Positions 29,092-58,150 are shown, numbered from the stretch's first letter. The stretch is DNA of 64,000 nt from Escherichia coli (GCF_030013205.1 NZ_CP122648.1); one strand, 5' to 3'. Notes: a model not told the origin generated them from the letters alone. Program-made: numbers and translations.

Positions 29092-29165
29092 TTCAATGGT
29101 AGAACGAGAGCTTCCCAAGCTCTATACGAGGGTTCGATTCCCTTCGCCCGCTCCAAACAAACATT
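29092..29165 (+). tRNA. glyU: tRNA-Gly (anticodon CCC)
   Basis: 74-nt cloverleaf GCGGGCG...CGCCCGCUCCA; anticodon stem AGAGC/GCUCU around loop UUCCCAA; T-arm GGUUCGAUUCC. Confidence 0.95.
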
Positions 29166-29319
29166 TCTCAACGTCTACTAAAGTCCATCAAACCCACGAA
29201 TATCAAGCCTTCCAGCCATTTTCATAGTTTATTAACGTCTACTCACAACTACCAGAATCTACACACAGAAGTGTATAGTAATGCGTATAGGACAAAATTT
29301 ATTTTTTGGAGCTATACAC

Positions 29320-30534
29320 ATGCTGCTTTCAGACCTTGCCATCAGGCGCGCGAAGCCGAAAGAAAAGGCTTATACACTCAATGACGGTAACGGGCTTTCG
29401 TTGCTCATTGAGCCGAACGGTTCGAAAGGGTGGCGACTGCGCTACAGGTTTGCAGGAAAGCCCAAAATGTTGTCGTTGGGTGTGTACCCTGATGTGTCTC
29501 TGTCTGATGCCAGGGCGGCAAGGGATGAGGCTAAAAGGCTTCTTGCTGGTGGTATAAATCCAAGTGAGGCCAGAAAAGCCCAAAAGCGAGAACAGGCGAG
29601 CAAATTTGGCAATACTTTTGAGGGTATTGCTCGCGAATGGTACGAAAAGCGGATCGACAGGTGGTCATCGTCATACGCCGAGGAAATGATCGAGACGTTT
29701 GAAAAAGATGTTTTTCCGTACATTGGCGGTAGGCCGATCGCAGAAATTAAGCCGATGGAATTGCTGGCGGTTCTTTCCCGTCTTAATGACCGTGGTGCGA
29801 CTGAAAAATTGCGTAAGGTTCGCCAGCGATGCGGCGAGGTGTTCCGGTACGCAATCATCACCGGACGCGCCGAATATAATCCAGCCCCTGACCTGGTGAG
29901 CGCATTTGCTCCACATAAAAAAGAGCATTACGCCTATTTGAAGGCCGACGAACTGCCGGAATTTTTCCGCGTTTTTAATACGTACACCGGAAGCCAGATC
30001 GTCAAACTGGCAATGCGGCTATTAATTCTGACAGGTGTCAGACCCGGGGAATTACGGCAGGCAGAATGGCAGGAGATCGATTTTGATAATCGTTTGTGGG
30101 AAGTGCCTAAAGAACGAATGAAGATGCGCCGTCCGCATTGTGTGCCATTACCAGAACAGGCGATAAAAATACTGGAGCAGTTAAAAAACATGACAGGCCA
30201 GTATCAGTTTATTTTCCCCGGTCGTATTCGCCACAGTAAGCCAATGAGTGAAATGGCGATGAATGTGCTCATTCGTCGTATCGGCTATGCCGGGCGCGTT
30301 ACTGGTCATGGATTCCGGCACACCATGAGCACCATTTTGCATGAGCAGGGCTATAACACTGCGTGGATAGAAACGCAGCTCGCGCACGTCGATAAAAACT
30401 CAATTCGTGGCACGTACAACCATGCGCAATATCTGGACGGGCGGCGGGAAATGCTTCAGTGGTACGCTGATTATATGGATTCGCTCGAGCATGGCGGAAA
30501 TGTGGTGCATGGTGAGTTCGGAAAATGCGGGTGA
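29320..30534 (+). CDS. int: tyrosine integrase, P4 family
   Basis: ORF track 29281..30534; start taken at MLLSDLAIRRAKPK (29320); catalytic HGFRHT and RGTYNHA motifs. Confidence 0.9.
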   Translation: MLLSDLAIRRAKPKEKAYTLNDGNGLSLLIEPNGSKGWRLRYRFAGKPKMLSLGVYPDVSLSDARAARDEAKRLLAGGINPSEARKAQKREQASKFGNTFEGIAREWYEKRIDRWSSSYAEEMIETFEKDVFPYIGGRPIAEIKPMELLAVLSRLNDRGATEKLRKVRQRCGEVFRYAIITGRAEYNPAPDLVSAFAPHKKEHYAYLKADELPEFFRVFNTYTGSQIVKLAMRLLILTGVRPGELRQAEWQEIDFDNRLWEVPKERMKMRRPHCVPLPEQAIKILEQLKNMTGQYQFIFPGRIRHSKPMSEMAMNVLIRRIGYAGRVTGHGFRHTMSTILHEQGYNTAWIETQLAHVDKNSIRGTYNHAQYLDGRREMLQWYADYMDSLEHGGNVVHGEFGKCG

Positions 30535-30656
30535 CTGGTTGAGTATACAGTAGTAGACTTTGAGCGACGAAAGAAAAGGCTGTGTCTAGGGTCGCTCCCG
30601 AAAATCCGTACACCTCGACGGACTGGTACAGCCACTACAGTAGAGGACGCTGAGGT

Positions 30657-31460
30657 GTGCGTATGATTGATATTCATGCCGAATTAAACGAATACAAAAA
30701 AGATTTTATTTCTTTACGTGAATTTCTTGAGGTCGTGCTTAAGGTCGCTGGTGATGATTATGATGTTTCAGATGTCATAACTTGGATACTCAGGAGAATA
30801 AGCGGAGAACATATCCGCCTGTACACAGTAAATGAATTTAAGCTGTTGGAATCTTTTTGTAACCCGTATCGGGATGAATTTGATAATGATGTTCTTTATA
30901 GAAATCTGAATGCGGTTCGGAAACGTGGTTGTTTACCTGGTGAGAGGGATGAAAATGGTTTTCTGGTGTCCGGTTATTGGGAAGATCCCGAATTTGAGAA
31001 CATTGGATTTATAAGGGGTGAAATTTTCGCAATTTTTCCCGATGTCCTTGACGCGTTAACGAAGCTGGAAGGCGCTAACTCTTCTGAAAATGACGAGGCA
31101 CAAGGACGCGATATTGAAAAGAAAGAGTTGCGTACAGAGGATGATTTATTATCCCAAATCGCAATGCTGGAAAAAGAAAACGCAGAGTTAAGGGCAAGGA
31201 TAGAGCAGTTAGAGCAAGAGCGCCCGATACACTTATATAAATACTGGGATAAAGACCCATTAGCTAAGGCTATTGAGATTAGAAACAGAGAGTGGGCCAA
31301 TTACGATCCAGAAAATGATTTTGCCACCAGGGGAAATCAAGAAGCGATAACCAGGGAGCTTAAGCAGTGGGGGGCAAGTAATGCACTTGCAACGCTCATA
31401 GAGAGGACTGCCTGCCCTATTAACCGAGACAACAGCCAAAAGAACGCAAAGCCGGATTAA
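30657..31460 (+). CDS. hypothetical protein, 267 aa, C-terminal coiled coil; orphan cargo gene between int and alpA
   Basis: Complete ORF; predicted coiled coil (LSQIAMLEKENAELRARIEQLEQE); no catalytic motif recognised. Confidence 0.7.
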   Translation: MRMIDIHAELNEYKKDFISLREFLEVVLKVAGDDYDVSDVITWILRRISGEHIRLYTVNEFKLLESFCNPYRDEFDNDVLYRNLNAVRKRGCLPGERDENGFLVSGYWEDPEFENIGFIRGEIFAIFPDVLDALTKLEGANSSENDEAQGRDIEKKELRTEDDLLSQIAMLEKENAELRARIEQLEQERPIHLYKYWDKDPLAKAIEIRNREWANYDPENDFATRGNQEAITRELKQWGASNALATLIERTACPINRDNSQKNAKPD

Positions 31461-31475
31461 CGCACCATACCGCAT

Positions 31476-31619
31476 ACCCTGAGGGTGATTTACTGTTACC
31501 CTGAGGGTATTTTTTTATCTTCCCCGTCAATTTTACCATCACCCTTAGGGTAGATTTCCTCCCGATTACCATCACCCTTAGGGTAGATTTCCTTCCGGTA
31601 ACCATTAGGCCTGAGGGTA
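31476..31619. repeat. five copies of an imperfect palindrome CCCT-n-AGGGTA upstream of alpA
   Basis: Copies at 31476-31486, 31498-31508, 31541-31552, 31574-31585, 31609-31619; a 25-bp unit ACCATCACCCTTAGGGTAGATTTCC occurs twice. Confidence 0.7.
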
Positions 31620-31687
31620 TGAAAATATTCGTTATTTCTGTGCCATGATTACCTCGTCAAATTGAGTAGACGTTATGAGGTAAATAT

Positions 31688-31885
31688 ATGTCAAATACGC
31701 TTATTCGTTTAACAGAAGTTCAGCGTAGAACTGGATATAGCAAGGCATGGATTTATCGCCTTATGGGGCAAGGTAAATTTCCTGCATCAGTTAAAATTGG
31801 CTCGCGAGCTATTGCTTTCGTTGAGAGTGAAATTGACGAGTGGATTAATCAGCGTATTGCGGAATCACGCGGAACAGCTACCTGA
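31688..31885 (+). CDS. alpA: AlpA-family phage transcriptional regulator (MerR-like HTH)
   Basis: 65-aa ORF; VQRRTGYSKAWIYRLM...FPASVKIGSRAIAFVESEIDEWI is the AlpA signature. Confidence 0.85.
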   Translation: MSNTLIRLTEVQRRTGYSKAWIYRLMGQGKFPASVKIGSRAIAFVESEIDEWINQRIAESRGTAT

Positions 31886-31962
31886 TTAAATGGCTACGGG
31901 GCTATTGCCCCCAGCTATCCACCAGCAAATAAAAGTAACTTAATTCGATAGCAGGAGTTTTT

Positions 31963-32763
31963 ATGAAATTTCCAAAAACGCCCGTACAGGGGCGGGGCTT
32001 CGTTCGGCCTGAAAACCAGAATCTGCAAAATTTCGGCGAAATTATCCCGATTATTTCCGGCGTTATTGGCGGGAGTGAAACCACTATTGTTAGCGCCAGA
32101 GCGTTACATAAGGCGTTAGGTGTAGGGCGCGTTTTCCGTTCGTGGATCAAGGGGCGCATTGAAGAATATGGGTTCACGGAAGGCGTGGATTATAAGGTTG
32201 TTGAATATTTGAGCCGACCCGATCCGGTGAGCGCAAAATCTCGCCAGCAAACCGCTCTTGAGTACATCATCACAGTGAACATGGCGAAAGAACTGGCGAT
32301 GGTCGAACGTACCGAACAGGGCCGCGCCGTTCGCCAGTACTTTATCAAATGCGAGGAGGAGCTACACAAGGTTGCGCCTGTTCGTTCCGCAGCGTTACGC
32401 CGGGAACTGAAAGCCCGTATCACAGTTGCCAGCTACTTTAAGCCAATGTGTGCCGCGCTGGAGGCGTACCGGGCTGAACTGGGTAAAAACACACTCCAGC
32501 ACCACTACACCACGGAAGCGAACATGCTGGCGCGTATCGTGCTGGGTGGCATGACTGCAAAACAGTGGGCACTGGCGAACGGCATTACAGGCGAACCACG
32601 CGACCACATGAGCACGTTGCAGCTTGAGCACCTTTCTTACCTTGAGCAGAGCAATATCACGCTGATTGAGTTAGGCCAGGACTACCACCAGCGGAAGGCT
32701 GAATTAATTCGTCTTTCGCAGCGTTGGTTAGCCCGTCGCATGGAGGAAAACAGCCATGTGTAA
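31963..32763 (+). CDS. phage antirepressor-like protein (Bro-N/AntA-type N-terminus)
   Basis: 266-aa ORF; the N-terminal region resembles phage antirepressor proteins. Confidence 0.6.
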   Translation: MKFPKTPVQGRGFVRPENQNLQNFGEIIPIISGVIGGSETTIVSARALHKALGVGRVFRSWIKGRIEEYGFTEGVDYKVVEYLSRPDPVSAKSRQQTALEYIITVNMAKELAMVERTEQGRAVRQYFIKCEEELHKVAPVRSAALRRELKARITVASYFKPMCAALEAYRAELGKNTLQHHYTTEANMLARIVLGGMTAKQWALANGITGEPRDHMSTLQLEHLSYLEQSNITLIELGQDYHQRKAELIRLSQRWLARRMEENSHV

Positions 32764-33237
32764 CGCTCTGACCGTTACAAAAAGAAAAAGCGCCCCGTTG
32801 CCGGAGCGCCTTTGTGAACGAATAGCCTACTGCGCCATATTGCTTACTGTCTACGAGGCAGATTATAGCGTTGTGGTCGCACAGAGTGAAGGCGCTGATC
32901 ACCGTTACTACAGCACACCAGAAATGCAGAATATTTTGCTGCAAAATGTCGTTGGCCACGCTGTCCGGAAAGCAAAAAATTTTGCTGGTGGCGTGACTGA
33001 TACGATTTTTTCTGGTTGCTCGGTGCTGATCAACTTAACCTGGACTTATGTACAACATTGCAACTATTCCTACTTTAAGCTGAATGTAACTTTACCTATA
33101 TCATTAGAGGTATGGTCGCGCTTGACCTCAATTTCACCATTTTGTAGCCCTGCTACAAAAAAATATAAAAGTGTCAATGTTGCTGCAATCAGTAACCATT
33201 TTCCAAAAATATACATTCTTGATTTTACCCTTAATCG

Positions 33238-33411
33238 TCAACCTTTTGGCACGATGCCTCGCTGTTGTAATTCTTTGCGGAGCACTCGTTTAATCCAGGT
33301 AGCTAATGAGGTGTCGCCGTCTGCTTTGGCTGCCTCCTCAAGTTGTGCCCTAAATTCTTCTGGTAGCCGCATTTGGTATGGTGGCGATCGTTTTTCTAAT
33401 GGTGTTGACAT
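33238..33411 (-). CDS. Arc/MetJ-type ribbon-helix-helix DNA-binding protein (57 aa)
   Basis: Manual translation MSTPLEKRSPPYQMRLPEEFRAQLEEAAKADGDTSLATWIKRVLRKELQQRGIVPKG; below the 60-aa ORF-track cutoff; start abuts a palindromic operator. Confidence 0.6.
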   Translation of the reverse strand: MSTPLEKRSPPYQMRLPEEFRAQLEEAAKADGDTSLATWIKRVLRKELQQRGIVPKG

Positions 33412-33451
33412 GGTAATTACCCATAATTACTATAGTTACACGGTAATTACC
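33412..33451. promoter_or_regulatory. putative operator: two perfect GGTAATTACC palindromes 30 bp apart
   Basis: Palindromes at 33412-33421 and 33442-33451 in the divergent region between the Arc-like gene and the 33548 gene. Confidence 0.55.
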
Positions 33452-33547
33452 ATTGTACTTACCATTGCAAAAAAAACAACGCCCCGGACTGCGGGAACAG
33501 TACCAGGGCGTCTAACCACCAACGATAGCGAAAGTATCGAGGTAGCT

Positions 33548-33751
33548 ATGATAAATCATACCACACACCCGCAAGGGCGGGACTCGCACAACCTGAATAA
33601 ATACATCTGGCGTTTTATCGCCCTGAGCACGGCACAACCGCGCGTGATTCACATCGAGGCCACCAGCGAACAGGAAGCCCGCCAGCAATCTCCTGATGGC
33701 TGCGTGATGGTATTCGCTGCCCGTATTCGCCAGGAGGTACGCCATGATTAA
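33548..33751 (+). CDS. hypothetical small protein (67 aa)
   Basis: ATG at 33548 with a GAGG RBS; 8-nt overlap with the next ORF. Confidence 0.55.
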   Translation: MINHTTHPQGRDSHNLNKYIWRFIALSTAQPRVIHIEATSEQEARQQSPDGCVMVFAARIRQEVRHD

Positions 33752-34109
33752 CCTGTCACTTACCGACCTTCACCGCATTCAGTTTGACGAGAAATTTACC
33801 GGGCAGCTACTGGTCCATGTGGAGAACGGGCGCATAGTGCGTAATTACCACCTGCCGGATGGTGCAATTGCCGGAAGCGTTGAAGCATTGCTGGAAATGG
33901 CAGAACGTGCGCGACTGATTAAGCCGTTAACGTGCCATCACGATGATGATCTGCATTTTACCGGACGCATGGTGAGCCATTATGAAAACGGCGTTGAGGT
34001 ATCCCGCGAACGTCTGCGTGATGATTGCTGTTTCGGCACATTGCCGGAATTTATCGAATTGCTGACCGATTGCGGTTATCAGGTAATTCAGAGCAAGACG
34101 CAGGAGTAA
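33744..34109 (+). CDS. hypothetical protein (121 aa)
   Basis: ORF track; operon context upstream of primase. Confidence 0.6.
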   Translation: MINLSLTDLHRIQFDEKFTGQLLVHVENGRIVRNYHLPDGAIAGSVEALLEMAERARLIKPLTCHHDDDLHFTGRMVSHYENGVEVSRERLRDDCCFGTLPEFIELLTDCGYQVIQSKTQE

Positions 34110-34115
34110 AAAACC

Positions 34116-34406
34116 ATGAAAAAGAAAAATTCTGGCTTTACTGCCAGCGGCCCCGCTCGGCCTGAAATCAAACACGGCGATATTTACCGCGACACCAGAC
34201 GTGGGGGACGAGTGGTTATTCGTCACGTTACGCCAGGCAATATCACCTACCGCCGTGAGGCTTACGAATATGACTGCGTAATGCCGCGCCGTCAGTTTGA
34301 GCGTGATTTTATTCTGGTGGAAAACAAACAACAGGCGGTGGCGAGACGTGCAGCCACGAATATTAAAAAAATCCGGGCAATGTTGGTTGCGGGAGGTAAG
34401 AAGTGA
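34116..34406 (+). CDS. hypothetical protein (96 aa)
   Basis: ORF track; 4-nt overlap with the primase start. Confidence 0.6.
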   Translation: MKKKNSGFTASGPARPEIKHGDIYRDTRRGGRVVIRHVTPGNITYRREAYEYDCVMPRRQFERDFILVENKQQAVARRAATNIKKIRAMLVAGGKK

Positions 34407-36208
34407 AAAACGCCCCGAATTTAAAATATCAGCCGAAGGATAAATTCACTGAGGTAATCATTTTTGCCGGGACGGATGCTTACGCCCATGCTCAACACTG
34501 GATTGAAAGCGAAGGACGAAAACACGGCGATAACGTACCACCTGTTTACCTGGGGCCGAAGCAACTGGCAGACCTGGCGAACATCCGCATTATCGACGAA
34601 GGGCGCCGCTTTGCGCGTGTCTATATCGCAGGGGAGATCGAACCAATTCAGATCAACGCTATCGCCGAAAAGCTGGCACTGGCTGGCGTACAGGAGGCGA
34701 AATTATACAAAGGCATCACCGACCGGGAGCCGGAGAACTGGCGCGATTACCTGCAACGGATCCGCGAACAGGCAGAGCGCGGGGAAGTTTCAGCGATGAA
34801 ATTAGTCACAAAAAATAGTGACCTACCCAGGCCAGCACTAAATCAGATGGGAGCCAGCCAGAGAGGGGAAGTATTGCTTGAATATTATGGAAGGGCACTG
34901 GCTATAAATGACGATTCTGATGTAGTTCACCATTACAACGGAATTGTCTGGGAGCCTGTATCTGATAAGGAACTCCAGCGGTCTATGGCGAAGATTTTTA
35001 TTGATGCTGGAATCAGTTATTCGCAAAACGCCATTAAATTTGCCGTAGACACAATGAAATTGAGCCTGCCTGTTATGGGCGGGGCAGACAGGAATCTTAT
35101 TGGATTCAGTAACGGGGTATTTGATACCCGGACAGGAAATTTTCGGGAGCATAACAAAAATGACTGGTTGTTAAATGCCAGTGAATTACCGTTCAGCCCA
35201 CCAGCAGAGGGGGAAACGCTGGCAACACATGCGCCGAATTTCTGGAAGTGGCTGCGTCGTTCGGTGGCAAATAACGATCGTAAAGCGGATCGCGTACTGG
35301 CGGCATTATTCATGGTACTGGCGAACCGGTACGACTGGCAGTTATTCCTTGAGGTAACGGGGCCGGGCGGAAGCGGTAAAAGTGTGATGGCGGAGATTTG
35401 TACCATGCTGGCGGGTAAGGCCAATACAGTATCGGCGAGCATGAAGGCGCTGGAAGACGCGAGGGAACGAGCGTTAGTGGTGGGATATTCTCTGATTATC
35501 ATGCCTGACATGACCCGCTACGCAGGTGATGGTGCTGGGATTAAGGCCATTACAGGCGGTGACAAGGTGGCAATCGACCCGAAACATAAAGCCCCCTACT
35601 CCACACGTATTCCGGCGGTAGTGCTGGCAGTAAACAATAACGCCATGTCATTCAGTGATCGCAGTGGAGGGATCTCGCGTCGTAGGGTGATATTTAATTT
35701 CTCTGAGGTCGTACCGGAGAACGAACGCGATCCCATGCTGGTGGAAAAAATAGAAGGCGAACTGGCGGTAGTGATTCGCCATTTGCTTACACGATTTGCC
35801 GACCAGGACGAAGCGAAAAGACTACTTTATGAGCAGCAAAAATCAGAAGAAGCACTGTTAATAAAGCGTGAAGGTGATTCGCTGGTGGACTTCTGCGGTT
35901 ATCTGATGTCGTTGGTTAAATGTGAGGGGATGATAGTAGGTAATGCAGAAATAGTGCCATTTAGCCCGAGGCGATATCTGTATCATGCTTATTTGGCTTA
36001 TATGTCTGCGCATGGTCTGGGAAAACCGGTATCACTGACACGCTTTGGTACAGATATGCCAGGGGCAATGGCTGAGTACGGAAAGGAGTACAAGCGGGCT
36101 AAATGCACTAAAGGTCCAGATAAAGGGCGAACGATCACAAATGTTCTGTTAGATAAAGATGCTGATGGATGGTTACCAGCAGCGGCAGGCATTAACGACA
36201 GAACATGA
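34403..36208 (+). CDS. phage/satellite-type DNA primase-helicase (P4 alpha / D5-like)
   Basis: 601-aa ORF; Walker A GPGGSGKS; followed directly by an iteron array. Confidence 0.8.
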   Translation: MKNAPNLKYQPKDKFTEVIIFAGTDAYAHAQHWIESEGRKHGDNVPPVYLGPKQLADLANIRIIDEGRRFARVYIAGEIEPIQINAIAEKLALAGVQEAKLYKGITDREPENWRDYLQRIREQAERGEVSAMKLVTKNSDLPRPALNQMGASQRGEVLLEYYGRALAINDDSDVVHHYNGIVWEPVSDKELQRSMAKIFIDAGISYSQNAIKFAVDTMKLSLPVMGGADRNLIGFSNGVFDTRTGNFREHNKNDWLLNASELPFSPPAEGETLATHAPNFWKWLRRSVANNDRKADRVLAALFMVLANRYDWQLFLEVTGPGGSGKSVMAEICTMLAGKANTVSASMKALEDARERALVVGYSLIIMPDMTRYAGDGAGIKAITGGDKVAIDPKHKAPYSTRIPAVVLAVNNNAMSFSDRSGGISRRRVIFNFSEVVPENERDPMLVEKIEGELAVVIRHLLTRFADQDEAKRLLYEQQKSEEALLIKREGDSLVDFCGYLMSLVKCEGMIVGNAEIVPFSPRRYLYHAYLAYMSAHGLGKPVSLTRFGTDMPGAMAEYGKEYKRAKCTKGPDKGRTITNVLLDKDADGWLPAAAGINDRT

Positions 36209-36236
36209 TACGAAATTTATAAGTTGAAACTTAAAA

Positions 36237-36572
36237 GTAGACGGTTGGTAGACAGATACACTTAACCCTCTACCAACCATCTACTAATTAATGTTTTGAA
36301 TTATATAGGTATTTTTAATGTGGTAGAGAGGTGGGCAGTTATTTCTATATTCCTAAACCACGGGGGGTATATAAAAAAACAGATAGTTAAGGGTTCATTT
36401 TTTAAATTTCTCTTTTAACTGTCTACACTGTCTACCATTTAGTAAAAATCATTAATTATCAATGTATTAATGCGGTAGACAGTTAGTAGACAGTTTGCAG
36501 ATTGTTTTTTTGTTATGAGTTAATAACATTAAATAAATCAATCAATTATATCGGTAGACAGTTGGTAGACAG
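36237..36572. repeat. putative replication origin: paired GGTAGACAG iterons flanking an AT-rich segment
   Basis: GTAGACGGTTGGTAGACAG (36237-36255), inverted copy (36268-36284), TGGTAGAGAGGTGGGCAG (36321-36338), inverted pair (36419-36436), GCGGTAGACAGTTAGTAGACAG (36473-36494), TCGGTAGACAGTTGGTAGACAG (36551-36572). Confidence 0.7.
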
Positions 36573-36580
36573 TTGTAACG

Positions 36581-37123
36581 ATGGGGCAAAGCATGACTAA
36601 GCTGACCATTAACAGAAAACCGAAAGGCATTTATGGCACGCCGCAGAAAACGACGCAGGCGGCACAGGAGCAGGATAAAACCACGTCGGCGCATAAAGTG
36701 ATGCCCGGTAACCAGAAAGCGCAGCAGAAGCCCACAGGGGCGACACCGTGGCGGCATATGACCAAGCGCCAGCGCAAAAACCGCAGGCGCATTAACCGCC
36801 TCACTGAGTTGTGGCCTGAATTATTCAGCCGGGAAGCACCGAAGCCGCTTAAGGTGGGGATATTCGACGACCTGATGCAGGATCTCGCCGTCAGGGGGCT
36901 GGCATTCGGTCCAGGGGCATTGCGTGCGACGCTGGCATCTTATGCACAGTGTCCGCGCTATTACCGCGCCTTAATGGCTGGTGGGGTACGCTACGACCTG
37001 AAAGGCCAGCCGTGCGGCGAGGTGACACCACAGGAACAACAGGACGCAGAAACGCGGCTGGTGGCGCTGAATGAGAAGCGCAAACGTCAGCGCCGGGTAG
37101 CAAAGGAGAAAACAGGCGCATGA
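36581..37123 (+). CDS. ProQ/FinO-domain RNA-binding protein
   Basis: PLKVGIFDDL...LRATLASYAQCPRYYRAL...YDLKGQPCGEV parallels ProQ (PLKIGIFQDL...LRSALRLYTSSWRYL...VDLDGNPCGEL). Confidence 0.75.
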   Translation: MGQSMTKLTINRKPKGIYGTPQKTTQAAQEQDKTTSAHKVMPGNQKAQQKPTGATPWRHMTKRQRKNRRRINRLTELWPELFSREAPKPLKVGIFDDLMQDLAVRGLAFGPGALRATLASYAQCPRYYRALMAGGVRYDLKGQPCGEVTPQEQQDAETRLVALNEKRKRQRRVAKEKTGA

Positions 37124-37407
37124 TTCACGACAGCAAAGCGGAAGCACTGGAAGCGCGTGGTCTGTACCGGAGAGCGGCGGCGCGGTGGGCTGAGGTCATC
37201 ATGCTGGCGAATGATGACAAGGCACGGGAACAGGCGGCAAAACGTCGCGCGGAATGTATCCGCAAGGCAGCACGCCCACCAGCACGGCAGGATAATTTCG
37301 GGGAGATGCGCGAAACCATCAGCCGGGCACATGCCGGGATGGGATTACATCAGCCCAATGGTAAGGCATTCAGGAAATACCCTGGATCGAAAAATTGCAG
37401 TCAGTGA
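37120..37407 (+). CDS. PerC-family transcriptional activator-like protein
   Basis: 95-aa ORF; SKAEALEARGLYRRAAARWAEV matches the PerC-family N-terminal signature; ATGA overlap with the upstream gene. Confidence 0.6.
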   Translation: MIHDSKAEALEARGLYRRAAARWAEVIMLANDDKAREQAAKRRAECIRKAARPPARQDNFGEMRETISRAHAGMGLHQPNGKAFRKYPGSKNCSQ

Positions 37408-37608
37408 CGGAGGCCGGGATTTTTCCCGGCTTTTTTGTGCCAGTAAAAAGCCCGCAGCCAGAAGTGTTGCGGGCTTTGTTTTTCAGGTGATTGAAGTCAA
37501 TGGGAAGAACGCGATCATCATGCGTTATTGTTTCATAAATTGCAATGATGTAGATCGTCATTTCAGTTTGTGCAATCATAATCGTTGTTTTGTTCAGGAG
37601 ATATGACT

Positions 37609-37782: not shown

Positions 37783-37821
37783 TGGTCGTGATTTTTTGGT
37801 GAAAAAAGAGAGGTGGTAAAA

Positions 37822-49510: not shown

Positions 49511-49815
49511 CAGACAACATTCTGGAAGTTATGGACACTCTTTCGGATCGGATGATCGCCCTACAGACACGTATCAATCAAGCCTATTCAGATTTATGCG
49601 ATTACACGCTCTCTCAATGCGTTAGTAGCTTAATGAAGGTGAATGTAAGCCTTGACGATTTCATCTCTCTGGTGAGCGATTTAGAGCTATCTAAGGACGA
49701 TGTCAGGCTGTGTACTCAAACCATCACAGACACCGCCAGCACGTTAAAGGCTGCAAGTGAAGAGATTCAGCAATTAGTAGATGATTTAGCAAAAAGTGCT
49801 ATTTTCTCCAAATGA
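49507..49815 (+). CDS. hypothetical protein (102 aa)
   Basis: AAGGAG RBS; ORF track. Confidence 0.6.
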   Translation: MTDNILEVMDTLSDRMIALQTRINQAYSDLCDYTLSQCVSSLMKVNVSLDDFISLVSDLELSKDDVRLCTQTITDTASTLKAASEEIQQLVDDLAKSAIFSK

Positions 49816-50807
49816 TAATGAAAATCATTTGCATTTATAACGATTTCATTATATAATGATATTAGGGGTAGATAAAAAGGTTTTGACTGGTGTTAATCCT
49901 TCTACTGTCATAAATCCCTGCATATGGAAGGTGATAGCCTCAAGGGTTGAGTGGCATTAACCTCTAACAAATATTACCTTCCATCTCTCAAGAAGTTTTA
50001 GAATAATCATAACTCCCTCTTTGATTGTTGATTGTTTCTACGTTGTGTTGATGAATGTTGTTAGGCATTGTGCTTAATTTTGATAAAAGCGGGTAGGTGT
50101 TATCTCCTTGCCCTTCCCGCTCTTATTTTTCATCTATGCTTATCCTAAAGCTCCTTATTTTGTCCGAAAACATTAAAGAGCCTTACACTGATAGTTATAT
50201 TTTATAACTATTTACTAACATCATTAAACTCTTATTTAATGACAGAAGTTAGTAACAGAATAATCTATTAAGTTGTTGTCAAAAAACTATCATCTGCATA
50301 GCGTTAGCCGCAAGTAGAGAGAGTTTAGTTAAGAATGGTGCAATAAACTTTGGAAATATTGATAGCAAAACTAGTTTTATAGAATGCGGATCTATAATCT
50401 TTGGTTGTAAAAACGATTTTCTGAAACGGTAGATTACTGTTGGTGTAGTTAATCCTTATTAAAAATTTAATCTGTGAGTAGATTGGAATAGTGATTCCTT
50501 AAAATCTGACTGGTGCATCCACACCATGAAAGATAGCAGTTGGCCACCGCGCCCCGAATAGATATTCCTGATTGATTCCGCATGTTTTCCTAAGAGCATG
50601 TTTTCAGGAATATCTGTTCACCCTTTAAACCTATCTTTAAGCATGTTTAATAAGCATTCTTAGAGATACGTTTAAAACCTCCTCAAGGTTTTACTTATCG
50701 CTGTGTATTGCCCGACACGTTAATAAATCCCCCTCGCTATTGTCAGATTGAACCTCTTATAGCCTGGGGGATTTATTAAATTCCAGCATAATGGAATCGT
50801 TATATAA

Positions 50808-51017
50808 ATGAAACAAGAAATTATCCTGAAATATGGCAATGAAAAGTTAACACTAACTGAAGATGTGTTGAATGCTACAGCCTACGCGCTTGGCATCACT
50901 CCCACAGAATTAAAGAAACAGTGTGAACGTCTTTATAAGGCTGAAAGCAATAAACCATCTCACCAAGATTTGATTAATGCTAAAGCTCAACAAATCAAAC
51001 AATCTAAGGAAAAATAA
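50808..51017 (+). CDS. hypothetical small protein (69 aa)
   Basis: ORF track; stop overlaps the next start (TAATG). Confidence 0.5.
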   Translation: MKQEIILKYGNEKLTLTEDVLNATAYALGITPTELKKQCERLYKAESNKPSHQDLINAKAQQIKQSKEK

Positions 51018-51391
51018 TGGCTATTTTAAAATTAAGCGATGTTTTCCCACATCGTAAAAGCATCACTGACGTAGTGAGCTATGCAACCGACCCTTACGCG
51101 GCTGTAGAAAGCAAAAAATTTGCAGCACTTGCACAAGATGTAACGTGCGGCGACCTCATTGATTCATCCGGCGCTAAATATGTTAGCGGCGCTGATGTTC
51201 TTGTCGTTGTGTCTGACTTCGTAACTGCTGATTCAAATAAAACAGTTAACGTGCTTCGTGCTAATGCCGGACTCGTTTGCATCAAAGCTGATGCCCTGAA
51301 TGCCGAAGGCGCTGTAAAAGAAGCTGCTATTGCAGCTCTCGCTGCTAAAGGCTTCCAGCTTGAAGGCTTCCACTCTGTTTTCACATCTTAA
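51017..51391 (+). CDS. putative phage head decoration-like protein (124 aa)
   Basis: Position directly upstream of a major-capsid-like gene, as for lambda D/E; the assignment rests on context only. Confidence 0.45.
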   Translation: MAILKLSDVFPHRKSITDVVSYATDPYAAVESKKFAALAQDVTCGDLIDSSGAKYVSGADVLVVVSDFVTADSNKTVNVLRANAGLVCIKADALNAEGAVKEAAIAALAAKGFQLEGFHSVFTS

Positions 51392-51407
51392 GAAGGAATA
51401 AATAATA

Positions 51408-52436
51408 ATGATTATCGGAAATGAAGTGGTTGATCTTGCTCCACTGTTCGAATTAAACGACTCACGCAATTACCTACTGTCTACTCTGGATTTTACTGAT
51501 CCTGTGCCTGTAGAAAGTCACAAAGTGGCTGTTTCCCAGCTTATCGAGAGCAATGAATCTCTGTTCAACCATCCTACAAGCCGTTTTAGCTCTGAGCATA
51601 ACGTTACTAAGCGTGAGAACGGGGAAGAATGGCTGATTGAAATCCCTTACTTCCTGCGTGAAGACCTGATCAAACCGCAGGACGTGCAAGGCAAACGCAA
51701 AGCCGGAAGCTCTATTGAAGAAACACTGCCGGATCTGTATGCGGAATATATCGCTACACACAATGTTGCATTCCAGCGCACTAAAGAAAGCATCCTCGCG
51801 GCTTCTCTGTTCTCTGGCAAGACACATACCCCGAAAACTGACGATGTTCTGATCGACTACAGCACTCTGTTCGGTGTGTCTCCAATGACTGCAACCGTTG
51901 ACGCATCCAGCACCAACACAATGACCGTATTCAAGCAATTTGATCAGATGCATACGGATATGATTGCTAAGGCACAAAGCCAGGCTGCAACCATTGAGCG
52001 TGTTGTTGTGTTCTGTAAACCTGCGGCATTCAACGCTATTCGTTACAGCGTTGGCATGGTTAATGCGTTCCAGTATGCAAGCCCTGTAGACGATGCAAAC
52101 GTGGTGTTTAATGTGCGTTCTCTGCTGCCTGGTGTAACTACTTTCACCATTCCAGGAACTAACATTGACCTGATCAAAGTGACTGATCCGCTGCTGCTGG
52201 CACATATGACCGCTGACGCTGTAGCTATTCCTAAACTTGCTAAGGGGGCAGGTGTTTACCAAGCTATTTTTGGTGCGCCTTCCAGTTCATTCGATCTGCT
52301 GTCTCAAGGCGCTAAAGAGTATTACAGCTATGCTTTCGAATCGAATCGCGGCGACGCAGTGCACGTAGTGACCGAGAATAGCTCGCTTGTGGTTAACCAC
52401 GGTGTTGGCTTCTCTGTGCAGATCACAGTAGCGTAA
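51408..52436 (+). CDS. putative phage major capsid protein, lambda E-like
   Basis: 342 aa (lambda gpE is 341 aa); C-terminus ...GVGFSVQITVA resembles the gpE C-terminus ...DEFVSVQLA; N-terminal DLAPLFEL region. Confidence 0.5.
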   Translation: MIIGNEVVDLAPLFELNDSRNYLLSTLDFTDPVPVESHKVAVSQLIESNESLFNHPTSRFSSEHNVTKRENGEEWLIEIPYFLREDLIKPQDVQGKRKAGSSIEETLPDLYAEYIATHNVAFQRTKESILAASLFSGKTHTPKTDDVLIDYSTLFGVSPMTATVDASSTNTMTVFKQFDQMHTDMIAKAQSQAATIERVVVFCKPAAFNAIRYSVGMVNAFQYASPVDDANVVFNVRSLLPGVTTFTIPGTNIDLIKVTDPLLLAHMTADAVAIPKLAKGAGVYQAIFGAPSSSFDLLSQGAKEYYSYAFESNRGDAVHVVTENSSLVVNHGVGFSVQITVA

Positions 52437-52590
52437 AAAGTGTTAAAGACGTTCCCCTACGTCTGGAAATAATCGGGGCAATAAGGGTAAGGGATAATCA
52501 TATAAGCAAAATATGCGCTGTCTCTTGCACTTTTTGTTTTTCTACTGTCTACAAACCCAAATAAAAATATATATATGTGAGAGAAAACCA

Positions 52591-52788
52591 ATGAATACAG
52601 AAAATTCACAGGCATTAATTCTTAAATCTGTAAAAGAACTGGCAGCTATTAGCGATGACTCAATAATCAATGTCAGTGCCTTATGCAGAATGCTTTCAAT
52701 TGATGCAAATAATGTGCGGCAGCGTGTGTTTCAGACTGGATGCAGCACTTTTGAAGCAATTACATACTACTGTTCTAAAAAACAATAA
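52591..52788 (+). CDS. hypothetical small protein (65 aa)
   Basis: ATG at 52591 within the ORF-track frame 52513..52788. Confidence 0.45.
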   Translation: MNTENSQALILKSVKELAAISDDSIINVSALCRMLSIDANNVRQRVFQTGCSTFEAITYYCSKKQ

Positions 52789-52822
52789 TAAACAACAATC
52801 ATAATACAGGGAAACAATTAAC

Positions 52823-54646
52823 ATGTTAGAGCTAAACATCAGCCGCTTGTCAAACGTTGTCACCTTCGAAGTTAACCGACCATCATTAGAGAAAGCAAAA
52901 GCAGAAGTAGAAAAACTTCGTAAACAAATGGCGGCGGTGAAAGATATAGAATTGCGTGTTAAGACACATAAACAATCAACCGCTAGAGCAAAAAAAGACG
53001 TAGACGATATTGCTAAAAAGCAAGCACAGGCTGATAAAGCTAATGCTAAAGCACAATTAGCCGCTCAACGTGTAGTTGCAAGAGAACAAAAAGCCCTGGC
53101 AGCACGCAAAGAGAAGGCAGAATTAAAGCTTTTAGACGTTGGATCAAGCATTAGTGCAATGCACCGTCTTTCTGTAGCGGAACAATATAAAGCTATTGCA
53201 CAGGCTAGAGAAATTGCCCTCCAATATGAAAGAGGCGCTATTAGTCTGGCACGTATGAATAGCCAAATGAAACGCCTACAACAGCAACAACGTAAGATTA
53301 ATGGCAATCGTAACGCTCACGCTAAAGCCTATGCACCTGTTAAGGGTAGCGGGAGTATTGGCGGCGGTGCTGCGGCTGTTATGCTGGGTGGCTTAGGCGC
53401 TGGCGCTACGTATATGGCTATGAGCAAAGCCTCTGAATTTATGGCTAATAGCTTTGCGAATGCTGAAACAGAAGGGGAATTAATCCAACGTGCAAGGCTT
53501 GGTGGAGTTGATTACAACTTACTTAATAATCTTGAGCGTTGGGCTTACGATAACGGGATCGATAGCCTCCAGGGTGATCAGGGACGCAGAAAAATACTAG
53601 ATGCCATCGGTAAAGATGTGCGTGAACGTGCAACCAAATCTTATGACGAGGCTGAATATGTAGTCGATAAGAAAACAGGGAAAGGCGAATGGAAGGGCGG
53701 CGATAGCGGCATCAATACTTTAATGAATGAAGGATTCCTAACTAAAAAGGATCTAAAAGACTTTGCTGATAATCCGGCTGGTCTGGTTAGTAAAGCAGTT
53801 CAGGGAATGGTAGCTAAAGGCTATTCAGATGCACAAATCGGTAGTCGTCTGGAAGATCTGGCTGATGATTTGATGCTCACCTCTAAATACTGGACACGCT
53901 CCGCTAAAGAAGTGGAACAATCAGCACGAGAACAACGAGAATCAGGGCGCTGGGTAACGCAGGCACAACAGGAAAGCGTTATTAAATTCCGTGAACTGAA
54001 TAATGCACTTAGTGGGCTTTCTGACTCACAAGGGATCGCCTTTGTTGATGGCTTTATGAAATCTCTTGATCCGAAAGTGATTGAAGAGTTTAAAAAGAGC
54101 ATGGTTGCAATGCTGCCAATGTTTACCAAATTAGGCGAGGCTATCGGCGGATTGGTTAACGCTGTAATGAAAGCAATCAACTGGCTGATGAAAAACGACG
54201 AGAAGACGGCAGCTATTCAGAAGAATTTAGGTGATGCACCGCCACTATCTAACGAAGGAATGAAGCAGAATCTTTCTAATCTCACTCCTGATCAATATAA
54301 AGGCGCTGGCACCGGAACAACTAAGCCAGATAACAGCAATTCCCTGGTTAACACTATTAAAAGCTGGTTTATGCCAGAAGAAACGGTAGGTGGGGCGCAG
54401 GCTGTAAATCAATACAGTCTCGAAGGACAAAACATTGCAAATCTGAAACAGAGTGCAGCACAACAAGCTTTCAAGGCTCCTTCTTACACCTTTGCACCTG
54501 TTATTAACTTCAATCCAGAATTACAAGTAAATGCAGAAGTGCCGCTAACTATCGAATCAGACACCGGACGATTGAGCGAATTTATCGACTTCAAATCAAA
54601 GGCATCTTCCGCTGAGTTTAGCAAGCTATTTAGACTGGCCCCCTGA
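52823..54646 (+). CDS. tape-measure-like protein (coiled-coil plus glycine-rich hydrophobic segment); 3' end truncated by IS2
   Basis: 607-aa ORF; N-terminal coiled coil; [25 protein letters not shown]; the last 5 codons and the stop come from the IS2 left end. Confidence 0.6.
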
Positions 54647-54721
54647 ATCTCCAGACAACCAATATCACTTAAATAAGTGATAGTCTTAATACTAGTTTTT
54701 AGACTAGTCATTGGAGAGCAG

Positions 54722-55087
54722 ATGATTGATGTCTTAGGACCGGAGAAACGCAGACGGCGTACTACACAGGAAAAGATCGCTATTGTTCAGCAGAGTTTTG
54801 AACCGGGAATGACGGTCTCCCTTGTTGCCCGGCAACACGGTGTGGCAGCCAGCCAGTTATTTCTCTGGCGCAAGCAATACCAGGAGGGAAGTCTTACTGC
54901 TGTGGCCGCAGGAGAGCAGGTCGTTCCTGCCTCTGAACTTGCTGCTGCCATGAAGCAGATTAAAGAACTCCAGCGCCTGCTCGGCAAAAAAACGATGGAA
55001 AATGAACTCCTTAAAGAAGCCGTTGAATACGGGCGTGCAAAAAAGTGGATAGCGCACGCGCCCTTATTGCCCGGGGATGGGGAGTAA
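54722..55087 (+). CDS. insC: IS2 transposase OrfA (InsC)
   Basis: [41 protein letters not shown]... matches IS2 InsC. Confidence 0.9.
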
Positions 55088-55950
55088 GCTTAGTCAGCCG
55101 TTGTCTCCGGGTGTCGCGTGCGCAGTTGCACGTCATTCTCAGACGAACCGATGACTGGAAAGATGGTCGCCGCAGCCGTCACTCAGATGATACGGATGTG
55201 CTTCTCCGTATACACCATGTTATCGGAGAGCTGCCCACGTATGGTTATCGTCGGGTATGGGCGCTGCTTCGCAGACAGGCCGAACTTGATGGTATGCCTG
55301 CGATCAATGCCAAACGTGTTTACCGGATCATGCGCCAGAATGCGCTGTTGCTTGAGCGAAAAACCGCTGTACCGCCATCGAAACGGGCACATACTGGCAA
55401 AGTGGCCGTGAAAGAAAGCAATCAACGATGGTGCTCTGACGGGTTCGAGTTCCGCTGTGATAACGGAGAAAAACTGCGAGTCACGTTCGCGCTGGACTGC
55501 TGTGACCGTGAGGCACTGCACTGGGCAGTCACTACGGGCGGCTTCGACAGTGAAACAGTACAGGACGTAATGCTGGGAGCGGTGGAACGCCGCTTCGGCA
55601 ACGAGCTTCCGGCGTCTCCAGTAGAGTGGCTGACGGATAATGGTTCATGCTACCGGGCTAATGAAACACGGCAGTTTGCCCGGATGTTGGGGCTTGAACC
55701 GAAGAACACGGCGGTGCGGAGTCCGGAGAGTAACGGCATAGCAGAGAGCTTCGTGAAAACGATAAAGCGTGACTACATCAGTATCATGCCTAAACCAGAC
55801 GGGTTAACGGCAGCAAAGAACCTTGCAGAGGCGTTCGAGCATTATAACGAATGGCATCCGCATAGTGCACTGGGTTATCGCTCGCCACGGGAATATCTGC
55901 GGCAGCAGGCCAGTAATGGGTTAAGTGATAACAGGTGTCTGGAAATATAG
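55045..55950 (+). CDS. insD: IS2 transposase OrfB (InsD), DDE catalytic domain
   Basis: 301-aa ORF overlapping orfA in the -1 frame; IS3-family integrase core. Confidence 0.9.
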
Positions 55951-56050
55951 GGGCAAATCCACTATTAACGCTGGGTGTTATGTCAGGCGGGTCAACCTAT
56001 TAATCATCACTGTGGGGCGGTTTAGCCCCCTTAAATAAGGATTACAAATT

Positions 56051-56728
56051 ATGGCAATGGGTCCGTTAACCATTGGTCGCCCGACTGAGGCGAAAATCAA
56101 CAGCACAAGCAACGATAGCAACGGTAGAACAACCAAAGGGGGTAACGGCTTTGCGATCATTACCTCTAATCTCGGCAGTGGTGCAAATGCTGCTTACAAT
56201 GACTACCAGGCATTATCATTTGATAGCGTGGAATCGACGAAAGTTAGCAGAAATGCGGACGTTACAAGCTATGCCGTCGAATCAGGATCAGAAGTTAGTG
56301 ATCATGTTCAAATACGGAATAACAAGTTCACATTACAAGGGCGTATCTCTGAAACCGTATTGAAGCTCAATCCCGATATGATTAAGAATGCGGGAATTAA
56401 CGGCAATCGACGTATGCTTATGCTTGAATACCTAAATCAGTTGATGGACAGTCGCCAACCTTTCCTACTTGTCACTGAGTTAAAAAATTATGACAACGTT
56501 GTGTTAGTTGGCATGTCTTACGAAGAAGAAGCAAGCGAAAGCCTATTGTTTACTCTTGATTTTGAGCAAATCCGTCTTGTCTCTAAAGCAACTACAAGCG
56601 CAATTGCGGTAAAAACAGCACCAAATAAATCTGTAGGAGGTCAGGTTAAAATGCAGGTAAATACAACAGAACAGAAAAATCAAAAAAGCCCAGGGCAAGA
56701 CGTTGTAACGCCAGTATTTAAACAATAG
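56051..56728 (+). CDS. hypothetical protein (225 aa)
   Basis: AAGGA RBS; ORF track; immediately downstream of the IS2 insertion. Confidence 0.6.
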   Translation: MAMGPLTIGRPTEAKINSTSNDSNGRTTKGGNGFAIITSNLGSGANAAYNDYQALSFDSVESTKVSRNADVTSYAVESGSEVSDHVQIRNNKFTLQGRISETVLKLNPDMIKNAGINGNRRMLMLEYLNQLMDSRQPFLLVTELKNYDNVVLVGMSYEEEASESLLFTLDFEQIRLVSKATTSAIAVKTAPNKSVGGQVKMQVNTTEQKNQKSPGQDVVTPVFKQ

Positions 56729-56821
56729 CCTTAAACACCTATGAAACGCTCTATAACGAGATAATCATAAAAGAGGCATCAATCTATATTGAAGCCTCTT
56801 TATTACGTCTATGGCGTTGTT

Positions 56822-58042
56822 TTACGCCTTAAAATCAATATTTAATTCATATCTTACTAATTCTACATATTCAGCTAATTCTGGAATGCTTGCCCCTTGT
56901 GAGTAGGTGCGAAAGGCTTCTGTTTTGGCTTTTTGCTCAGTGTGGCCCGTAATACTGCCGATCCTGGTCTCGCTAACTCCGGCACGATCAAGACAAGTGA
57001 TAAACATCCCGCGCAAGCTGTGAAAGCATTGTCTATCTGTAGCGATTGGCAAGACGCTACGACGTAAACGTGAGAATGCTTGAGAATAGAACGGGCCTTT
57101 CTTGCCGTCGATTCTTTTTACTTTGTTCGAGTGAGGGAACAAATATTCACCATAATTATGATTTAAATATTCATCGACAATAATCGATAGTCTCGAATGT
57201 ATCGGAACGTGTCTGATCCCTGCTTTAGTCTTACTCTTGCTGATATAAAAACAGCGTATTCCTTCCACAGTTACAACCTCTGACTTTTTCAGGCTTGCCA
57301 GTTCGTCTAATCTGCATCCTGAAAACAAGCCCATTAAAATAATATTTCTGATCTCCGGCTCCGCTGCATCAAGTAGCTTTTGCATTTGTTCAGGTGTAAA
57401 CGGTTGATAACTCTCGATTGTGCGACGTGCTTCGAGGTTATGACCGTGAAAAGGGTTACTGTCTGGTATTCCGTCATAACGGCGTTTAGCAAATTCATAG
57501 AGCGATCCTAAGCATGTAAGCCAGTTTTGACGAGATTGATCGGCTGCTCCTCGTTGCTTCTGGTCATCTAAGAATACTGTTACAAGCCGTCTGCCTATTT
57601 TCTCAATATGAATATCATCTTTCTGAATGCTTTGTAAAAATAGCTCAACGGCCCTTGCTGATTTCTGTAGTGTTGAGTATGAACGACGCTCTCTGTAGCA
57701 TTCGGCGTATTCGTCACGTATTAAGCATAGGGAAGGCGATGCATAACCGCGTTTTACGGCTCTTTGCGTGTTTTTATTGGCCCTTGCCTCTGAATGTAAG
57801 AATTCAATAGCTTTTTGTAACCTCCTTTCGGGGTTATCAGGATTATGTTTCCGCTTTAGTTCCTCCCATTCTAATAACAGATGGTTTCTGAATCTTCTCG
57901 CCTCATTCAGATCTCGTGTAGATGTGCTTTTTCTCCACAACTTGTAAGGGTAAAGATGGCGTAAGTATTTAGGAACAAAAATCTGAAACATCCAGATCCC
58001 ATCTTTTCTCTTAAATAAGTATGCTTGGCTCTTGATCGACAC
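56822..58042 (-). CDS. tyrosine recombinase / phage integrase
   Basis: 406-aa ORF adjacent to att copy 3; C-terminal HSLRG and tyrosine-containing region; different family from the island 1 integrase. Confidence 0.75.
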   Translation of the reverse strand: MSIKSQAYLFKRKDGIWMFQIFVPKYLRHLYPYKLWRKSTSTRDLNEARRFRNHLLLEWEELKRKHNPDNPERRLQKAIEFLHSEARANKNTQRAVKRGYASPSLCLIRDEYAECYRERRSYSTLQKSARAVELFLQSIQKDDIHIEKIGRRLVTVFLDDQKQRGAADQSRQNWLTCLGSLYEFAKRRYDGIPDSNPFHGHNLEARRTIESYQPFTPEQMQKLLDAAEPEIRNIILMGLFSGCRLDELASLKKSEVVTVEGIRCFYISKSKTKAGIRHVPIHSRLSIIVDEYLNHNYGEYLFPHSNKVKRIDGKKGPFYSQAFSRLRRSVLPIATDRQCFHSLRGMFITCLDRAGVSETRIGSITGHTEQKAKTEAFRTYSQGASIPELAEYVELVRYELNIDFKA

Positions 58043-58127
58043 GATAATGATCCTCTATTATCACGTAATCAGTTACCTATGATTGATCACAAAATCTTTA
58101 TTTTACAGCAGGTTATTATGGGTTTCC

Positions 58128-58150
58128 TCGATTCCCTTCGCCCGCTCCAA
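58128..58150 (+). repeat. att direct repeat (23-bp copy of the glyU 3' end) at the distal island boundary
   Basis: TCGATTCCCTTCGCCCGCTCCAA is identical to 29144-29166. Confidence 0.85.

Follow-up and report, generated by a model that had tools for sequence, protein, structure and literature searches.

How one transfer RNA (tRNA) gene came to be followed by about 29 kb of accessory DNA, and what that DNA might be, is the question raised by the glyU locus of Escherichia coli ETEC4079, a strain from pig faeces in Belgium. The window analysed here is a stretch of 64,000 nucleotides of this strain (NZ_CP122643.1; window position = record position - 927,998). An earlier note on this DNA had proposed two adjacent elements between glyU and the ETT2 genes, delimited by three direct copies of the tRNA 3' end and each carrying its own tyrosine integrase. 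Comparison with other genomes bears out this arrangement, and we go on to consider matters that lay beyond the content of that note, namely the identity of the two islands, an IS2 insertion in the second of them and the order in which they arrived. The best explanation as a whole appears to be that two independent islands have used the same attachment site and that one of them, island 2, is a parasite of large virulent phages of the Stephanstirmvirinae; we would give this reading a probability of about 70%.

The glyU gene (29082-29155, + strand), which encodes tRNA-Gly(CCC), was the only tRNA gene found in the window by ARAGORN and is also recognised by the Rfam tRNA model (71.6 bits) and by the RefSeq annotation. 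It has actS/ygeR on one side and, in other strains, ygeQ on the other, and its 3' end is the attachment site of both islands. The 18-mer TTCCCTTCGCCCGCTCCA is present in exactly three copies in the window, all on the + strand, with starts at 29138, 43386 and 58132. The chance expectation for this sequence in dinucleotide-preserving shuffles is 0.00, even when two mismatches are allowed. Between copies 1 and 3 the identity spans 23 bp (TCGATTCCCTTCGCCCGCTCCAA); copy 2 has 18 bp in common with them. Copy 1 (29134-29156, +) lies within the intact tRNA and forms the left attachment site (attL) of island 1, copy 2 (43386-43403, +) joins the right attachment site (attR) of island 1 and attL of island 2 in a single fused site, and copy 3 (58128-58150, +) is attR of island 2, after which the native flank resumes with GH15/ygeQ and then ETT2. 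The coordinates previously given for copies 2 and 3 were exact; those for copy 1 (29144-29166) were 10 nt too high. From copy start to copy start the spacing is 14,248 bp between the first and second repeats and 14,746 bp between the second and third, in agreement with the element sizes of about 14.2 and 14.7 kb proposed before; the larger figure includes the 1,336-bp insertion made up of IS2 and its target duplication. At the junctions, identity between island and tRNA extends over 22 bp for island 2 (TCGATTCCCTTCGCCCGCTCCA) and over 18 bp for island 1, with just 17 bp in most relatives of the latter.

Each island was also said to carry its own tyrosine integrase, the two lying at opposite ends, and both genes are intact and located as described. 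Int1 (404 aa; 29320-30534, +) is a P4/CP4-type tyrosine integrase (phrog_1, E = 7e-79; NCBIfam PRK09692, E = 1e-96) whose gene starts 164 bp after the tRNA. Int2 (406 aa; 56822-58042, -; phrog_1, E = 1e-37) is encoded at the tRNA-distal end of island 2, reading inward, 86 bp before copy 3. The R...HxxR...H...Y catalytic motifs are readable in both translations, both of which are full length, and the two proteins are unrelated (19% identity, E = 0.23). Relatives of Int2 have a DUF6538 N-terminal domain followed by Phage_integrase. In the relatives of island 2 found at thrW and beside a tRNA annotated as Ser the integrase gene occupies the same tRNA-distal, inward-reading position, which indicates that the layout with integrases at opposite ends is a trait of the family and not the product of a rearrangement.

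The state of the glyU site was surveyed in 5426 complete E. coli genomes. To represent the empty site, 600 bp of sequence up to and including copy 1 were joined to the 600 bp that follow copy 3, and this query had end-to-end matches in 3381 of the genomes; among these were K-12 derivatives and a pig isolate with 100% identity. In the K-12 derivatives glyU is followed by ygeQ, as the earlier note had stated for K-12. About 10 pig strains besides ETEC4067 have island 2 alone, immediately next to glyU; in ETEC4067 it matches the window identically over 11,227 + 2,188 bp, IS2 aside, with both flanks 100% identical. In strain cq9 a relative of island 1 stands alone at glyU, ending exactly at the position corresponding to window 43403 with the native flank next. 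The junction between island 1 and island 2 was seen in three genomes only, those of ETEC4079, ETEC1748 and ETEC4090, and no genome was found that has the interval without the flanking repeats. Since each island occurs alone and the site also occurs empty, both intervals are discrete insertions, and independent integration in tandem can be regarded as almost certain.

Island 2 (43404-58127, +) consists of 13.4 kb plus IS2, the same element being present alone at glyU in ETEC4067, and is a putative satellite of Stephanstirmvirinae phages. It is AT-rich, with a G+C content of 34-45%. Its left end, from attL to the recombinase gene (43404-45100), holds variable cargo, here yecR and an 85-aa open reading frame (ORF); in relatives (L005, L007, L008, L025) other small ORFs or an HNH_2 protein are found there. 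The recombinase (183 aa; 45114-45665, -) is a small serine recombinase of the invertase/resolvase type (phrog_125, E = 5e-62; PF00239 in relatives). Within a 1.7-kb non-coding stretch lie iterons of the sequence GTAACGAnnnGTTAC, which form four palindromes followed by a very AT-rich run (46168-46324, +) and probably mark a replication origin. Small ORFs of 60 aa and 55 aa lie between the iterons and a gene for a Rep-like winged-helix protein (226 aa; 47783-48463, +) that matches phrog_270, other replication-initiator PHROGs and Pfam HTH_36 and carries the DNA-binding allele here termed A. The 55-aa protein (47562-47729, +) is possibly of the ribbon-helix-helix type, as judged by eye. After several unidentified ORFs come a major capsid homologue (342 aa; 51408-52436, +; phrog_29, E = 3e-15; PF03864 in relatives), a tape-measure-like protein (52823-54646, +; phrog_16051, E = 1e-29), which has 614 aa in ETEC4067, and a distal tail (Dit)-like 'baseplate' protein (225 aa; 56051-56728, +; phrog_817, E = 2e-33; PF21821 Dit_like in relatives). 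NCBIfam gave no names for the structural or Rep proteins of island 2. IS2 itself (1331 bp; 54631-55961, +) is flanked by a 5-bp target duplication, CTATT, and is found neither in the ETEC4067 island nor in those of ten other strains. An Rfam scan of 28-60 kb detected only glyU and the int-alpA motif of island 1; the non-coding stretches of island 2, 1.7 kb and 1 kb long, gave no match.

Relatives of the capsid/tape-measure module were present in 477 of the 5426 genomes (about 9%), O104:H4 included, and homologues of the Rep-like protein also occur in Klebsiella, Citrobacter, Enterobacter and Cronobacter. A single architecture, compact at 10-13 kb, recurs with different integrases at glyU, at thrW and beside the tRNA annotated as Ser. 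The relatives at thrW (L008:15808-16973; L020:18247 onward) have a second integrase gene, of P4 type, directly after them, frameshifted in 2013C-3264, which suggests that stacking by the family extends to thrW, where an older island lies behind it.

The identity of the phage partner was indicated by comparison with a set of 50,697 phage records. The best phage matches of the capsid, tape-measure and Dit proteins all came from phAPEC8-like myoviruses of 145-150 kb (Stephanstirmvirinae type). The capsid protein aligned over its full length with the major head proteins of these phages at 23-25% identity, the tape-measure-like protein was about 30% identical to inny_105 and to phage tape measures, and the Dit-like protein was 49-53% identical to the product of the gene located next after the tape measure in these phages (best match 53%, E = 2e-58). 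When island 2 was compared by tblastn with the whole of phage inny (Justusliebigvirus), the genes matched were inny_96 (major head), inny_105 (tape measure) and inny_106, the next gene. As an internal control, 17 proteins of island 1 were compared with the inny genome and gave no match. The 124-aa protein encoded upstream of the capsid gene showed no similarity to the decoration protein inny_95 and had no Pfam match. There is a weak resemblance between the serine recombinase and the hypothetical protein inny_28 (inny 11861-12178; 29% over 118 aa, E = 2e-6).

A second and much closer relationship was found at the replication genes. A 626-bp stretch of island 2 (47550-48175) has 96% nucleotide identity to inny and spans the 55-aa gene, whose product is 100% identical over 53 aa to inny_185, together with codons 1-140 of the Rep-like gene, residues 1-140 of which are 87% identical to inny_184. 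This phage protein (367 aa) is a chimera in which a winged-helix domain of allele A is followed by one of allele C (89% aa identity; 261 bp at 93.5%) and then by a C-terminal nuclease domain, which matches phrog_681 'endonuclease' (E = 4e-18), Pfam MUG113 (5e-4) and, weakly, T5orf172. In each of the 93 homologues of the C-terminal domain it lies near the C-terminus of the protein; among 40 of these that were aligned, MUG113 was recognised in 24, T5orf172 in 17 (E <= 0.1) and CapR domains in 12, and the residues Y273, K286, G288, R296, E325 and E348 are invariant. As the domain had no sequence match in the PDB, fold comparison was brought in for its assignment to the GIY-YIG nucleases.

The same chimeric architecture, a Rep-type DNA-binding region joined to a T5orf172/GIY-YIG domain, was found in inny_184, muut_154, P0002 and P0003, the last two from metagenomic phage contigs of about 150 kb with the same gene order. 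Alignment of these phage proteins showed that the first domain varies and that all of them have in common a linker, a second DNA-binding domain and the nuclease. The second domain matches island Rep allele C throughout. The first domain is allele B in P0002 (117/118 aa; 585-587 bp at 99.5%) and allele D in muut_154, where it is 100% identical in amino acid sequence to the Rep of an island-2-type contig. A second variant of the small gene upstream of Rep, of 56 aa, has one and the same sequence in two contigs, one from a phage metagenome and one from an island (L023:3776-3946 and L026:2635-2805), suggesting that phages capture this gene along with the Rep domain.

On the island side, four Rep DNA-binding alleles were distinguished, and to each belongs an iteron set of its own, always located at the same place in the island. 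Allele A, that of the window, is accompanied by GTAACGAnnnGTTAC, allele B (ETEC4090) by ACAGAATTCTGT, allele C (island-2-type elements at glyU and thrW) by GGAAATGAGTTCC and allele D (the island-2-type contig that matches muut_154) by TGATAGGGGTA; four or five cognate sites are clustered in the island origin. None of the iteron motifs of alleles A, B and C was found anywhere in the 147-kb genome of inny, so that the DNA-binding domains are carried by the phage without their cognate site. Together with the architecture of the chimeras this would be in keeping with their acting as nucleases directed at island origins.

These observations can be accommodated in a model drawn largely by analogy. 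On infection by a Stephanstirmvirinae phage, the winged-helix Rep-like protein would fire the iteron origin of island 2. The assembly of virions would be diverted or poisoned by the island's divergent counterparts of the capsid, tape-measure and Dit proteins. The answer of some of these phages would be a GIY-YIG nuclease bearing two DNA-binding domains copied from island Rep alleles, and this chimeric nuclease would cut the island origin. Rep DNA-binding domains would have been captured repeatedly by phages as a means of destroying island 2, and the presence of two in one nuclease could give cover against two replicon types. An antagonistic link between island 2 and these phages seems to us probable. 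That island 2 is actually packaged as a satellite is a more tentative proposal, and we are similarly hesitant about the wider suggestion that it represents a widespread new satellite family in E. coli and its relatives, opposed by dual-domain counter-nucleases of phages.

Several points weigh against the model. The capsid homology is distant, and no terminase, portal, excisionase, primase or helicase was recognisable among the proteins of island 2, most of whose small ORFs are without any match. In the window strain alone, IS2 removes the last seven codons of the tape-measure-like gene, and the copy of island 2 in ETEC4079 may therefore be impaired. No sign of excision, replication or packaging was seen for either island in the data considered here. 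A scan of IMG/VR with the capsid protein gave five matches, all of them prophage calls from isolate genomes and hence uninformative on packaging. Logan contigs of 12-13.4 kb with the Rep gene were considered as candidates for an excised circle, and the 13.4-kb contig was rejected: it runs from glyU into the native flank, as expected of an ordinary chromosomal contig broken at the tRNA. The direction of exchange between island and phage is read from abundance, there being one phage record with allele A against many islands. Among ten accessory proteins examined with PADLOC no credible defence system was found, and for island 1 neither clear capsid-remodelling nor small-terminase genes were recognised among its proteins.

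The failure to find packaging genes lends some weight to a different view, in which island 2 is a chromosomal anti-phage defence island that is not packaged and spreads by other means. Its structural homologues, as diverged paralogues of helper proteins, would then serve as dominant-negative decoys, and the phage nuclease would destroy the island to escape defence; a phage nuclease of matching specificity would indeed fit any replicating anti-phage element. However, the combination of iteron replicon, integrase and capsid protein is usual satellite equipment, and no PADLOC defence model matches. This view overlaps heavily with the one that we favour, packaging being the sole difference, and we consider it unlikely while ranking it first among the alternatives.

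It is less plausible that island 2 is the decayed remnant of a temperate phage related to the Stephanstirmvirinae and owes its similarities to common ancestry. Only three virion genes are recognisable, terminase and portal are missing, many ORFs are without assignment and IS2 has inserted, all of which would suit a remnant. Against this, the same 10-13 kb layout is repeated across 477 genomes, and beyond E. coli in other genera, at three sites and with integrases that differ, and Rep alleles and iterons diversify together. The Stephanstirmvirinae have genomes of about 147 kb, and no integrase is annotated in the inny record. Moreover, stretches of 96-99.5% nucleotide identity to virulent phages lie in otherwise unrelated DNA, which points to recent exchange and not to ancient ancestry.

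The direction of the exchange could in principle be the reverse of that assumed above. The chimeric proteins would then serve replication or homing of the phage, the islands would have borrowed their Rep domains from phages and there would be no antagonism. The direction of transfer is unproven, phage homing endonucleases commonly contain related GIY-YIG/T5orf172 domains, and neighbours of CapR type do occur. Against this, the 147-kb genome of inny holds no A, B or C iterons; the allele A domain was found in just one of the 50,697 phage records, that of inny, whereas allele C is indexed in 3152 blocks of a bacterial collection; and the phage gene is a patchwork of pieces of several island alleles. 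This reading appears to us the least probable of the three that concern island 2, and we retain that in which the phages took the domains from the islands.

As to the order of arrival, comparison of strains suggests that island 2 very probably came first. An identical island 2 is common to ETEC4079, ETEC4067 and ETEC1748; the right flank is 100% identical in all three, and the left flank of the window is matched at 100% by ETEC4067 and at 99.8% by ETEC1748. The island 1 of ETEC1748 is a different, mosaic one, which was looked for elsewhere in the ETEC4067 genome and found to be absent. The close agreement in genome length between these two strains is a coincidence. ETEC4090, relative to the window, has flanks of 98.4% and 97.6% identity and a divergent island 2 (73-90%), together with an island 1 that is 99.98% identical apart from a 1.3-kb deletion. 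The simplest history would be one in which a rebuilt tRNA end received variants of island 1 in independent events, two at the least and probably three. Island 2 would have entered glyU first, by way of its 22-bp identity, and island 1 next, by way of its 17-18-bp identity, into the rebuilt tRNA end, which would account for its position between the tRNA and island 2. At each insertion, carried out by the element's own tyrosine integrase, the tRNA would have been rebuilt and a displaced copy of its 3' end left behind, and the landing of IS2 in island 2 would be a later event. It is highly improbable that the 29 kb is instead one composite island that moves as a unit, with the middle repeat an internal relic, since although recombination between copies 1 and 3, identical over 23 bp against 18 bp for copy 2, is conceivable and perhaps favoured for Int2, each half occurs alone at glyU in other strains, the three tandem genomes pair different variants of the halves and the junction is confined to those three.

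Of the 22 bp of identity that belong to Int2, 18 are kept in copy 2, whereas copy 1 matches copy 3 over 23 bp. It may be speculated that in the tandem state excision by Int2 would remove the 29 kb as a whole more easily than just island 2. Copy 2 is a perfect 18 bp in ETEC4079 and lacks one C (CGCC-GCTCCA) in ETEC1748, cq9 and ETEC4090, where the tRNA copy is intact (right-hand repeats of island 1 compared at L003:16139, L004:16499 and L005:14092). The C is missing from ETEC4090 in spite of the near identity of its island 1 to that of the window. The difference could be a real polymorphism of attP or a homopolymer sequencing error. Loss of the C from the right-hand copy with the tRNA copy intact would place the Int1 crossover 3' of that position, probably within the last GCTCCA(A), a segment of 6-7 bp. 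Outside the islands, xdhA (window 25544-27835) carries an internal stop in ETEC4079, where the annotation treats it as a pseudogene, and is intact in ETEC4067.

Island 1 (29157-43385, or to 43403 with copy 2 included; + strand; about 14.2 kb), the boundaries of which are taken from cq9, ETEC1748 and ETEC4090, has the gene content of a satellite-like element of the phage-inducible chromosomal island (PICI)/P4 type, and we would classify it provisionally as such. After Int1 comes an int-alpA RNA motif (Rfam RF02996; 30579-30646, +; 45.5 bits, above the gathering score of 35.8; E = 1.7e-6), situated between the Int1 gene and that for a 265-aa protein of unknown nature. There follow an AlpA-type excisionase/regulator (65 aa; 31688-31885, +; phrog_2790 and phrog_66, E about 1.5e-11), an AntA/AntB-type anti-repressor (31963-32763, +; phrog_5817, E = 1.6e-41), Icd-like and DUF4222 proteins and a P4-family DNA primase (601 aa; 34403-36208, +; phrog_864, E = 2.7e-155; TIGR01613 primase_Cterm, E = 2e-27). 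A repeat-family search found three copies of the iteron GTAGACAGTTGGTAGACAG just 3' of the primase gene (36237-36574, +), a probable origin. Beyond the iterons are genes for ProQ/FinO and PerC proteins, a DUF2213 protein (38465-39148, +; phrog_6216, E = 1.9e-79) that resembles head maturation proteases weakly (phrog_530, E = 1e-5), a virion-type protein of 679 aa with a lytic transglycosylase region at its C-terminal end (39827-41866, +; phrog_7694, E = 4e-292), in which residues 501-637 match tape-measure and transglycosylase PHROGs, and a 175-aa protein with an N-terminal helix-turn-helix (HTH). The last was a small-terminase candidate on account of a match to phrog_57 that covers 42 N-terminal residues only (E = 1e-6).

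Mosaics related to island 1 were present in 1543 of the 5426 genomes, often with other integrases and at other sites. Comparison of the 679-aa protein with phages gave scattered matches and no clear group of helpers for island 1. The 1.3-kb deletion in the island 1 of ETEC4090 (window 38985-40269; L005:10578-12572) fuses the DUF2213 and 679-aa genes into an ORF of 664 aa. Two clusters of short repeats were also seen: a 33-bp tandem pair, TTACCATCACCCTTAGGGTAGATTTCC..., upstream of alpA within window 31475-31598, and AAAAAGTGTCAAG, in three to four copies near the right end of the island, 3' of the gene for the HTH protein (42450-42680). These clusters may be operator or packaging sites.

The arrangement at glyU has much in common with known cases of tandem islands at tRNA genes: an integrase gene beside the attachment site, a tRNA rebuilt at attL with the displaced 3' end at attR, three repeats from reuse of one site and an empty site in relatives. 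It differs in that the integrases are unrelated and lie at opposite ends, and in that the segments of identity overlap and are unequal (22 against 17-18 bp). PICIs have been defined by five core components (PMC10085698), three of which, the integrase, the AlpA regulator and a primase-replicase with iterons, are present in island 1; its candidate for the capsid-morphogenesis component is the DUF2213 protein, by the weak phrog_530 match (E = 1e-5). With a size of 14 kb and a site at a tRNA, island 1 would at best be of 'Type C' in the same scheme (PMC10085698). It shares Int, AlpA and an alpha-like primase with the P4-like satellites, but no PHROG match to psu-delta-sid or epsilon was obtained, and in the absence of Psu, Delta and Sid it is not P4-like.

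The closest parallel for island 2 is provided by the PICI-like elements (PLE) of Vibrio cholerae and their helper, phage ICP1. Like island 2, PLE is chromosomal and has an iteron origin, a Rep with swappable DNA-binding alleles and a large virulent myovirus as partner. On the phage side, both ICP1 and the inny-type phages encode a chimeric nuclease with a Rep-type DNA-binding region and a T5orf172/GIY-YIG domain. PLE integrates by means of a large serine recombinase. Island 2 differs in its host, in its tyrosine integrase and in having its own capsid, tape-measure and Dit homologues, and no PHROG, Pfam or NCBIfam match of its proteins pointed to a PLE gene; by analogy, it may work like PLE while standing outside the PLE family. 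In ICP1, Gp88/Odn combines an N-terminal domain 42% identical to PLE RepA_N with a T5orf172 nuclease and cuts the PLE origin (PMC8263062). Odn thus has one RepA-like domain at 42% identity, whereas the phage nucleases described here have two tandem domains, corresponding to two alleles, at 87-100% amino acid identity. The capsid-forming PICIs (cf-PICI) likewise encode their own HK97-type major capsid protein, but island 2 has no recognisable portal, protease, connector, small terminase, AlpA or primase and has tail-type genes instead; it is not a cf-PICI because the head module beyond the capsid protein is missing. A search of the literature, coverage of which was incomplete, turned up no account of either the island 2 family or the phage nucleases, so that an earlier description is possible.

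The presence of two islands at one tRNA gene is in itself routine genome plasticity in E. coli. The glyU pair is nonetheless a clean example, in which all intermediate states have been sequenced, two unrelated integrases act on one 23-bp target and the order of events can be read. If the proposed relationship between island 2 and its phages is true, the system would be an E. coli counterpart of PLE, ICP1 and Odn with dual-specificity variation, and it would make E. coli a tractable model for the arms race between satellites and virulent phages, which has so far been studied mainly in Vibrio cholerae. phAPEC8-like phages are used in therapy cocktails and the island 2 family is present in about 9% of strains, so that such an element could influence the efficacy of these phages and the range of hosts open to them, and their nuclease locus might be useful as a marker or an engineering target.

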